From the NCBI RefSeq assembly GCF_055900595.2, contig NZ_CM148325.1: a stretch of 64,000 bases of DNA; one strand, 5' to 3'. Position numbers and translations under genes: made by a program. The notes below the pieces were generated by a model. It saw only the letters and a program-made list of their open reading frames with translations, was not told the origin of the DNA and made no database searches. Numbering within the stretch: position 1 is the first letter of the stretch; each line of letters starts with the position of its first letter. Shown here in pieces: positions 50,279 through 51,075 of this stretch.

Positions 50279-50308
50279 ATCGCCTCCCATTAACTATTGC
50301 CAGCTACA

Positions 50309-50325
50309 AGCAATAATTGTGCCAG
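50309..50325 (-). promoter_or_regulatory. Sigma-54 (-24/-12) promoter-like element reading toward hypA
   Basis: Minus-strand ctGGcacaattatTGCt with GG-N10-GC spacing, about 30 nt upstream of the hypA start. Confidence 0.5.
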
Positions 50326-50350
50326 TGTTGATTATCCCTAAAGTGAATAA

Positions 50351-50373
50351 TGTCGATGATGTCGAAATGACAC
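50351..50373. promoter_or_regulatory. Candidate FhlA upstream activating sequence (copy 1)
   Basis: tgtcgatgatgtcgaaatgacac in the hypA/hycA divergent region; near-identical copy at 51002-51025. Confidence 0.45.
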
Positions 50374-50437
50374 GTCGACACGGCGACGAAATTCATCTTT
50401 AGCTTAAAAATTGCTTTAATAACAATAAATTAAAAGT

Positions 50438-50452
50438 TGGCACAGAAAATGC
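50438..50452 (+). promoter_or_regulatory. Sigma-54 (-24/-12) promoter of the hyc operon
   Basis: TGGCACagaaaaTGC with correct GG-N10-GC spacing, about 38 nt upstream of the hycA ATG. Confidence 0.55.
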
Positions 50453-50489
50453 TTAAAGCTGGCATCTCTGTTAAACGGGTAACCTGACA

Positions 50490-50951
50490 ATGACTATTTG
50501 GGAAATAAGCGAGAAAGCCGATTACATCGCACAGCGGCATCGTCGCCTACAGGACCAGTGGCATCTCTACTGCAATTCGCTGGTTCAGGGGATCACGTTA
50601 TCGAAAGCGCGCCTGCATCACGCCATGAGCTGTGCGCCAGACAAAGAACTCTGTTTCGTCCTTTTTGAACATTTTCGCATTTACGTCACCCTGGCGGATG
50701 GCTTTAACAGCCACACCATCGAGTATTACGTCGAAACGAAAGAGGGTGAAGAAAAACAGCGGATTGCGCAGGCACAATTGAGCATTGACGGAATGATAGA
50801 TGGCAAGGTCAACATCCGCGATCGCGAACAGGTACTGGAACACTATCTCGAAAAAATCGCTGGCGTTTACGACAGCTTATACACCGCCATTGAAAACAAT
50901 GTACCGGTGAATTTAAGCCAACTGGTAAAGGGACAAAGCCCGGCGGCATGA
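50490..50951 (+). CDS. hycA: Formate hydrogenlyase regulatory protein HycA
   Basis: 153 aa, MTIWEISEKADYIAQRHRRLQDQWHLYCNS. Confidence 0.9.
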   Translation: MTIWEISEKADYIAQRHRRLQDQWHLYCNSLVQGITLSKARLHHAMSCAPDKELCFVLFEHFRIYVTLADGFNSHTIEYYVETKEGEEKQRIAQAQLSIDGMIDGKVNIRDREQVLEHYLEKIAGVYDSLYTAIENNVPVNLSQLVKGQSPAA

Positions 50952-51001
50952 GCTGAGGCTTTGCCCGTTTTGCAGGCGTTACGCCTGTTTGGGGATGGGC
51001 G

Positions 51002-51025
51002 TGTCGATGAGTGTCGAAAATGACA
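51002..51025. promoter_or_regulatory. Candidate FhlA upstream activating sequence (copy 2)
   Basis: tgtcgatgagtgtcgaaaatgaca in the hycA-hycB spacer, matching the motif at 50351-50373. Confidence 0.45.
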
Positions 51026-51075
51026 TTTCATCGGCATGTTTTCGTCAAAAATGACAATCACCTGAGGAATGCCTG

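Follow-up and report, generated by a model that had tools for sequence, protein, structure and literature searches.

The region described here lies at the junction of the divergent hyp and hyc operons, in a window of 64 kb (the whole stretch of DNA that was analysed). The source of the DNA is E. coli: 1,051 bases around the locus match 5,425 of 5,426 complete E. coli genomes, several of them at 100%, and RefSeq annotates these bases as hypA / hycA / hycB. HypA, HycA, FhlA and HydN each scored above the cut-off of an NCBIfam equivalog or subfamily model, and HycB is identified by its RefSeq name. HypA scored 241.8 bits against NF002979 over residues 1-116 of 116. FhlA reached 1542.7 bits against NF011958 (cut-off 830), with residues 13-704 aligned to profile positions 1-692. 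Because this match begins at residue 13, the start of fhlA was put at 46587 and not at the TTG at 46623 of the listed open reading frame. The gene of the cognate activator is present in cis in this genome, and the gene order fhlA-hypEDCBA / hycABC... is the same as in K-12. hycA sits between the two copies of a repeated motif. The coordinates of all features are collected in Table 1.

Table 1. Genes, promoters and candidate activator sites at the hyp-hyc junction and upstream of hydN (positions in the window).
Feature	Position	Strand	Description
fhlA	44509..46587	-	formate-responsive sigma-54 activator; NCBIfam NF011958 FhlA equivalog
hypA	49928..50278	-	ATG at 50278 (MHEITL...); SD GGAGG at 50287-50283
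hyp sigma-54 (-24/-12) promoter	50309..50324	-	TGGCACAATTATTGCT; 0 mismatches to TGGCAC-N5-TTGCW; PWM rank 1, 21.2 bits
Motif copy 1, UAS1 core	50351..50372	+	tgtcgatga|tgtcgaaa|tgaca, read as TGTCGA tga TGTCGA aa TGACA; 22 nt
UAS1 right-hand extension	50373..50391	+	CGTCGACACGGCGACGAAA; three more YGWCR pentamers (50373, 50376, 50384)
IHF-like element	50420..50432	+	TAACAATAAATTA; one mismatch to WATCARNNNNTTR; adjoins hyc -24 box
hyc sigma-54 (-24/-12) promoter	50438..50453	+	TGGCACAGAAAATGCT; 1 mismatch; PWM rank 2, 16.3 bits
hycA	50490..50951	+	formate hydrogenlyase regulator, counteracts FhlA; NF007567 equivalog, 298.9 bits; RefSeq annotation
Motif copy 2, UAS2 core	51002..51025	+	tgtcgatga-g-tgtcgaaaa-tgaca, read as TGTCGA tgag TGTCGA aaa TGACA; 24 nt
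Variable arm of UAS2	51026..51039	+	tttcaTCGGCAtg; degenerate fourth half-site, completes dyad with copy 2; inverted repeat TGTCGATGA / TCATCGGCA
Conserved block of UAS2	51040..51056	+	TTTCGTCAAAAATGAC at 51040-51055 plus variable final A at 51056; inverted-repeat core CGTCA-AAAA-TGACA
hycB RBS and start	51064..51078	+	GAGGA at 51064-51068, GTG start at 51076; ORF list, conserved blocks, RefSeq annotation
Third pentamer array, upstream of hydN	63110..63145	+	TGTCA, TGTCA, CGTCA, TGTCG, TGACA; includes exact TGTCGATGA
hydN IHF-like box and sigma-54 promoter	63181..63216	+	TGGCATGATTTGTGAA at 63201-63216; PWM rank 10
hydN	63254-63778		NCBIfam-confirmed

The original prediction had described a 23-nt motif with one copy on either side of hycA. 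Two copies indeed flank the gene, with lengths of 22 and 24 nt. The first was expected at 50351-50373; its start was right and its end was one base too far. The second was placed correctly within the hycA-hycB spacer, as confirmed by direct reading of the sequence. The free base N assumed inside the motif exists in copy 2 and is absent from copy 1. Both copies differ solely by two single-base insertions in copy 2, a g at 51011 and an extra a in the A-run. A reader without tools had thus placed real regulatory elements to within one base. The spaced repeat TGTCGA-N3,4-TGTCGA occurs exactly twice in the 64 kb, both times at the motif copies (0.01 expected from 200 dinucleotide shuffles), and TGTCGATGA is found four times in the window compared to an expectation of 0.39.

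The GG-N10-GC sigma-54 elements claimed for hycA on the plus strand and for hypA on the minus strand were recovered. The scan with a position weight matrix (PWM) that had been proposed as a check was carried out with a matrix built from 22 other sigma-54 promoters, with hyc, hyp and hydN left out. The two elements ranked first and second of ~128,000 positions and were also the two best among 41 consensus matches with at most two mismatches in the window. In K-12, hycA, hypA and hydN are confirmed sigma-54 ChIP-seq sites (Bonocora et al., PMC4591121), from which we take the occupancy of these promoters. The hypA site listed there (CTGGCACAATTATTGCT, distance 20) is identical to the hyp promoter of the window, and the hycA site (TTGGCACAAAAAATGCT) differs from the hyc promoter in one spacer base. 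Since that list gives 26 and 20 nt to the gene starts, transcription is predicted to begin at ~50464 for hyc, 26 nt upstream of the hycA ATG, and at ~50298 for hyp, 20 nt upstream of the hypA ATG. The Salmonella equivalents are bound by sigma-54 in ChIP-chip and are sigma-54-dependent (PMC3844500). The literature counts hyc, hyp, hydN-hypF and fdhF as FhlA-dependent sigma-54 operons (PMC4987338, PMC3844500), and it names IHF among the activators of hyc and hyp (PMC2636881).

Comparison with K-12 MG1655, in which the locus corresponds to 2,849,850-2,850,646, revealed no difference in either motif copy, in the hyp promoter, in the IHF-like box or anywhere in the hycA-hycB spacer. The hypA-hycA spacer carries six substitutions (50340-50342, 50412-50413 and 50445, the last in the hyc promoter spacer), all outside functional blocks. 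Because the sequence of these elements is identical to MG1655, published K-12 work applies directly. Further scans of the locus returned little else. There was no Rfam family match in 49800-51500, and sigma-70 promoter and terminator counts in 50000-51300 were at or below chance. An FNR-dependent internal promoter is reported for the hyp operon; a scan for FNR boxes (TTGAT-N4-ATCAA, at most two mismatches) found no site inside hypA, and we make no claim for such a promoter. A 27-nt inverted repeat lies between both promoters. Other genera keep only TGCTT of it, and it was treated as lineage-specific.

Both motif copies are embedded in larger arrays of a half-site, the pentamer YGWCR, which is its own reverse complement and occurs 590 times in the window. 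The densest 60-nt segments are 50346-50405 with six pentamers, 63101-63160 upstream of hydN with five and 50994-51053 with five; one further segment of this length, inside fhlA, also has five. Hence, each of the three top clusters in 64 kb falls on one of the three regions that precede or flank FhlA-dependent operons. We refer to the array between the promoters as UAS1 (50351-50391) and to that between hycA and hycB as UAS2 (51002-51056); the 23-mer of the original prediction is only the conserved core of each. Pentamers start at 50351, 50360, 50368, 50373, 50376 and 50384 in UAS1, most of them spaced by 8-10 nt, and at 51002, 51012, 51021, 51043 and 51052 in UAS2, mostly 9-10 nt apart. According to a secondary source, FhlA is a tetramer whose binding upstream of fdhF and hyc is limited to one DNA face (bioRxiv 2024.07.24.604796), and the pentamer spacings in the sequence would fit such a one-face mode of binding.

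Related arrangements are found at other FhlA-dependent genes. The core YGTCR-N3/4-TGACR and the pentamer arrays are common to fdhF, hyfA and hydN. The sequence upstream of hyfA (CGACACGGGTGTCGAA) resembles the extension of UAS1, in particular 50376-50391, and the stretch of hydN that holds the IHF-like box and the -24 region shares 24 of 25 nt with the hycA promoter region at 50418-50442. The hydN promoter corresponds to the K-12 sigma-54 ChIP-seq site CTGGCATGATTTGTGAA (PMC4591121).

A 16-bp FhlA consensus, CATTTCGTACGAAATG, is attributed to Leonhartsberger 2000 and quoted in a review (PMC4987338). Scanning the whole window with this string at up to five mismatches gave 13 matches against 22.7 expected, hence no enrichment, and we therefore dropped it as a criterion for membership. 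Its best and only local match lies at 51038-51053 with five mismatches. Copy 1 contains the right half of the consensus, CGAAATG, at 50363-50369. Since the sites are the K-12 sequences of the FhlA work and CGAAATG is present, we regard this failure as a limit of the quoted string and not as evidence against FhlA binding. The 16-mer copied into reviews is unusable as a scanning pattern for these sites.

A HycA-anchored scan retrieved 80 loci from more than 15 enterobacterial genera, among them Escherichia, Salmonella, Citrobacter, Enterobacter, Klebsiella, Raoultella, Kluyvera, Kosakonia, Lelliottia and Pseudocitrobacter. Conservation was scored over 77-81 distinct orthologous intergenic sequences. 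The hypA-hycA spacer contains five conserved blocks: the hypA start codon and Shine-Dalgarno sequence, the hyp promoter (GCAATAA and TGCCA), the UAS1 core, the A/T-rich IHF-like box and the hyc promoter (TGGCA and TGCTT). Within UAS1, the conservation of CGAAATGACA at 50363-50372 reaches at least 85% in 81 distinct sequences; TG[T/A]CGA repeats precede it and a conserved GTCG follows. The IHF-like box has a conserved TAAA at 50431-50434, and 31 of the 81 orthologous sequences carry a perfect WATCARNNNNTTR consensus with an unchanged offset of -18/-19 from TGGCA. In 77/77 scored sequences, 50-53 nt separate the hyc box from the hycA ATG.

The conserved blocks of the hycA-hycB spacer are those of UAS2 and the hycB ribosome binding site. 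From the hycA stop codon to 51000, the sequence of many genera is missing or cannot be aligned. For TGTCGA (51002-51007), GTGTCG (51011-51016) and GACA (51022-51025), conservation in 77 distinct sequences is at least 85-95%. The 16-mer at 51040-51055 follows copy 2 closely and lies outside the predicted motif. It keeps at least 95% identity at every position in 77 distinct spacers, which represent more than 15 genera. No other element of the region, the promoters included, is conserved as well. The block 51040-51056 is two mismatches from TGTCGAAAATGACA and resembles the fdhF sequence CGTCAAAACTGACG. The cross-genus footprint marks the invariant 16-mer and the three-half-site core as the constrained parts. 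The original prediction had noticed neither this 16-mer nor the IHF-like box, nor the enhancer upstream of hydN, the third in the window.

These data bear on the question whether copy 2 might have arisen by chance or be a relic, without function, of a duplication in an ancestor; it could, for instance, once have been the enhancer of hycB and have stayed in place after the insertion of hycA. Such an origin could explain why hydN, a paralogue of hycB, has an enhancer and a promoter directly upstream, with a promoter region nearly the same as that of hycA, and why neither consensus nor PWM scans found a sigma-54 box between UAS2 and hycB. However, the cores and the 16-mer stay near-invariant across more than 15 genera in a flanking spacer that is otherwise free to diverge, the chance expectation for the repeat is very low, and length changes are limited to about one helical turn. 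Because of this conservation we exclude a functionless relic, an explanation that we find scarcely credible.

Between the core and the 16-mer, the variable arm completes a dyad with copy 2. In E. coli this dyad, formed by copy 2 and the next 13 nt, reads TGTCGatgagTGTCG aaaa TGACAtttcaTCGGCA. Its pairing is kept in 83% of cells in 22 species, compared to 20-55% for slid controls, and five pairs are changed on both sides. Since UAS2 is part of the hyc mRNA, some of its conservation could act at the RNA level. A rival reading is that conservation of the spacer is mainly RNA-level, with hairpins and the 16-mer tuning hycB translation or mRNA processing and the likeness to copy 1 being secondary. 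The predicted fold of the spacer RNA is indeed stable (-54 kcal/mol, z = -4.3, 0/200 shuffles as stable), with one hairpin over the UAS2 dyad and another pairing CACC with the GGTG of the start codon; the dyad pairing and a 16-mer more invariant than the promoters point in the same direction. Against this, RNAalifold found no compensatory pair in 22 spacers, nor did Rfam give a match, and the dyad spacer columns are unpaired in 12-14 of 22 species. Moreover, the right arm is wholly missing from Enterobacter-type spacers, which are ~11 nt shorter; spacers fall into length classes of 58-59 nt and 46-50 nt. The same half-site arrangement is also present in three enhancers upstream of their promoters, UAS1 and those of hydN and fdhF, none of which is part of these transcripts. 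As RNAalifold gave no compensatory pairs, the RNA-structure reading was not adopted, and we judge a mainly RNA-level origin of the conservation to be very improbable.

FhlA enhancers typically stand ~70-150 bp upstream of the sigma-54 promoter that they serve, and an IHF site lies between the two. UAS1 relative to hyc, with the IHF-like box, and the hydN array are located in this way. UAS2 is not: its centre lies ~730 bp upstream of the predicted hyp start and ~565 bp downstream of the hyc start. Relative to the predicted transcription starts, the centre of the UAS1 22-mer is at ~-102 for hyc and at ~-64 for hyp. UAS1 is only ~27 bp from the hyp -24 box and is therefore probably too close to loop to hyp. 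The K-12 hyp-hyc formate-regulon control region is said to have been characterized by Lutz and co-workers in 1990, by Schlensog and co-workers and by Hopper and co-workers in 1994 and by Leonhartsberger and co-workers in 2000. Earlier deletion and footprint work reportedly gave UAS1 to hyc and the hycA-hycB site to hyp. Schlensog, Lutz and Bock in 1994 and Lutz and co-workers in 1990 are reported to have identified the hycA-hycB site as the hyp enhancer. None of the papers reached by the full-text searches says where this enhancer lies.

In the genera compared, the UAS1 core is 29-31, 41-43 or 53-54 nt away from the hyp box and 48, 59-62, 70-71 or 83-84 nt away from the hyc box. Indels thus come in steps of ~11 nt between UAS1 and either promoter and also within UAS2, and this pattern supports face-of-helix constraints, with the sequence comparison holding few independent indel events in related species. 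The steps on both sides of UAS1 may be read as phasing on both, and would then favor a model in which each promoter is served by both enhancers, in place of a split with one enhancer per promoter. FhlA molecules at the two arrays would cooperate via a ~650-bp loop across hycA into an active oligomer, UAS2 would also boost hyc from its downstream position and UAS1 would also aid hyp. The same three-half-site core in both copies agrees with such sharing. Active bacterial enhancer-binding proteins are hexamers and each site binds pairs of DNA-binding domains (PMC7175178), and action from downstream or from kilobases away is possible (PMC3844500). On the other hand, the quantisation could reflect phasing between the two promoters, and its events are few. 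The reported deletion and footprint results also divide the two sites between the operons. We therefore consider shared enhancers an unlikely arrangement, yet one that deserves to be kept in mind.

We conclude, with a probability of roughly 90%, that this part of the hyp-hyc junction serves as the control centre for the formate regulon of E. coli, composed of FhlA arrays and two divergent sigma-54 promoters for hydrogen-producing enzymes. This is the known divergent hyc/hyp architecture that the original prediction had invoked, and it is supported by the gene identities, the identity to K-12, the published sigma-54 and FhlA listings and the likeness to other FhlA enhancers. In the mechanism that we propose, sigma-54 RNA polymerase would sit at the hyp and hyc promoters in closed complexes that are unable to open unaided. 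FhlA, whose gene closes the hyp operon at a distance of ~4 kb, would bind the arrays of TGTCG/TGACA-type pentamers, which lie about one helical turn (~10 bp) apart in UAS1 between the promoters and in UAS2 between hycA and hycB. With formate bound, FhlA oligomers would hydrolyse ATP and reach the promoters through DNA looping; these physical contacts, like the pairing of enhancers with promoters, are inferred. UAS1, ~100 bp upstream of the hyc start and with the putative IHF bend site in between, would drive hyc. UAS2 would be the enhancer assigned to hyp, and the third array would play the same role for hydN-hypF.

More elaborate versions of this mechanism can be imagined. UAS2 might perform a double duty, as a remote FhlA site for hyp at the DNA level and, at the RNA level, through dyad and 16-mer structures in the hyc mRNA, near the hycB ribosome binding site, that set the output of HycB-I in proportion to that of the anti-activator HycA. 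Alternatively, one phase-locked FhlA assembly over UAS1 and UAS2 might fire both promoters, as hinted at by the ~11-nt spacing steps on both sides. We regard these ideas as very improbable. The feature itself is real, precisely located, strongly conserved and already known: it is the textbook architecture of the formate regulon, a classic E. coli sigma-54 enhancer system. The refinements described here, namely the extended arrays, the 16-mer, the IHF-like box, the hydN enhancer and the helical-turn quantisation, add detail and no new biology.

The closest known system is the divergent sigma-54 control region of hyp and hyc in K-12, which is the same locus with the same gene order. The fdhF UAS shares with the arrays the clustered YGWCR pentamers ~100 bp upstream of a sigma-54 promoter (TGGCATAAAAGATGCA), and its inverted-repeat core CGTCA-AAAC-TGACG is close to CGTCA-AAAA-TGACA in UAS2. 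It is unlike them in its pentamer spacing of ~5 nt, in lacking the tandem TGTCGA-N4-TGTCGA and in serving one unidirectional promoter. The hydN-hypF enhancer has five pentamers including an exact TGTCGATGA, and, as in hyc, ~90 nt separate its array from the downstream -24 GG; however, the order and orientation of its pentamers differ and its -12 element is weak (GTGAA instead of TGCA). In a wider sense, the region resembles NtrC at glnA, NorR at norR-norV and RocR at rocG, where an activator bound at repeated distant sites likewise contacts the sigma-54 polymerase by looping. NorR requires three sites (PMC4987338), and enhancers of this kind can act at 70-150 bp, over distances of hundreds of bp up to kilobases, and also from a downstream site (PMC3844500). 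Unlike in the NtrC, NorR and RocR systems, the remote site here is inside the divergent operon, between its first two genes, and UAS2 is consequently itself transcribed when hyc is on.

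The most strongly conserved element of this region is a 16-mer in the spacer between hycA and hycB, within UAS2, the predicted FhlA enhancer at this position. It is invariant, with at least 95% identity at every position, in the 77 distinct spacers compared, which represent more than 15 genera, and its conservation exceeds that of either sigma-54 promoter and of the repeated tgtcgatga...tgaca core of the original prediction. The Shine-Dalgarno sequence of hycB lies just 8 nt away. A 2016 review quotes an FhlA consensus, CATTTCGTACGAAATG (PMC4987338). Searching the whole window for it with up to 5 mismatches gave 13 matches, versus 22.7 expected by chance, and the sole match in a real enhancer (51038-51053) carried 5 mismatches. 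This consensus is unusable as a scanning pattern.

3' of the hycA stop codon lies a stretch that forms a stable hairpin and is absent from the orthologous spacers of Enterobacter, Klebsiella and Kluyvera. Long spacers with differing hairpin-prone sequences were confined to Escherichia, Citrobacter, Salmonella and organisms closely related to them; Kosakonia carries a different hairpin insertion, placed after the 16-mer and before the ribosome-binding site of hycB.

Sequence features discussed here (window positions)
Feature	Position	Strand	Sequence or remark
Invariant 16-mer	51040-51055		TTTCGTCAAAAATGAC
Hairpin-forming stretch	50963-51000		GCCCGUUUUGCAGGCGUUACGCCUGUUUGGGGAUGGGC
Sigma-54-like sequence inside hycA	50559-50574	+	TGGCATCTCTACTGCA; rank 8 with a sigma-54 matrix (PWM) from 22 other promoters
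Inverted-repeat arms, divergent promoters	50298-50324; 50438-50464		27 nt, 78%
YGWCR cluster, fhlA coding region	46050-46109		5 pentamers
YGWCR cluster	17922-17981		4 pentamers around an additional exact TGTCGATGA at 17932
Common stretch, hycA promoter region	50418-50442		AATAACAAT[A/C]AATTAAAAGTTGGCA
Common stretch, hydN	63181-63205		24/25 nt identical to the hycA stretch

Across the 50324-50438 region and its orthologues in 80 HycA-anchored enterobacterial loci (L001-L080), the distances from the UAS1 core, between hypA and hycA, to the sigma-54 boxes and the internal lengths of UAS2 cluster in size groups that differ by about 11 nt (such as 41-43 versus 53-54, 59-62 versus 70-71, and 58-59 versus 46-50 nt). 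Because of this grouping, the lengths suggest helical-phase constraints on both sides. The two divergent promoters themselves form an inverted repeat, whose likeness runs beyond the -12 box (TGCTT..AGCTGGCA) and across the predicted start sites; conservation in other genera does not reach into this extension.

The sigma-54-like sequence inside hycA, which reads TGGCACATCTACTGCA in K-12, overlaps the codons W-H-L-Y-C. Most genera keep similar sequences, and coding constraint is probably behind this retention. A search of a K-12 sigma-54 ChIP-seq study (PMC4591121) turned up a single hycA entry. Both local clusters of the YGWCR half-site may have arisen by chance.

The stretch common to the hycA and hydN promoter regions spans the IHF-like box and the -24 element. 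Since HydN and HycB are paralogues, both control regions may originate from a single duplication.
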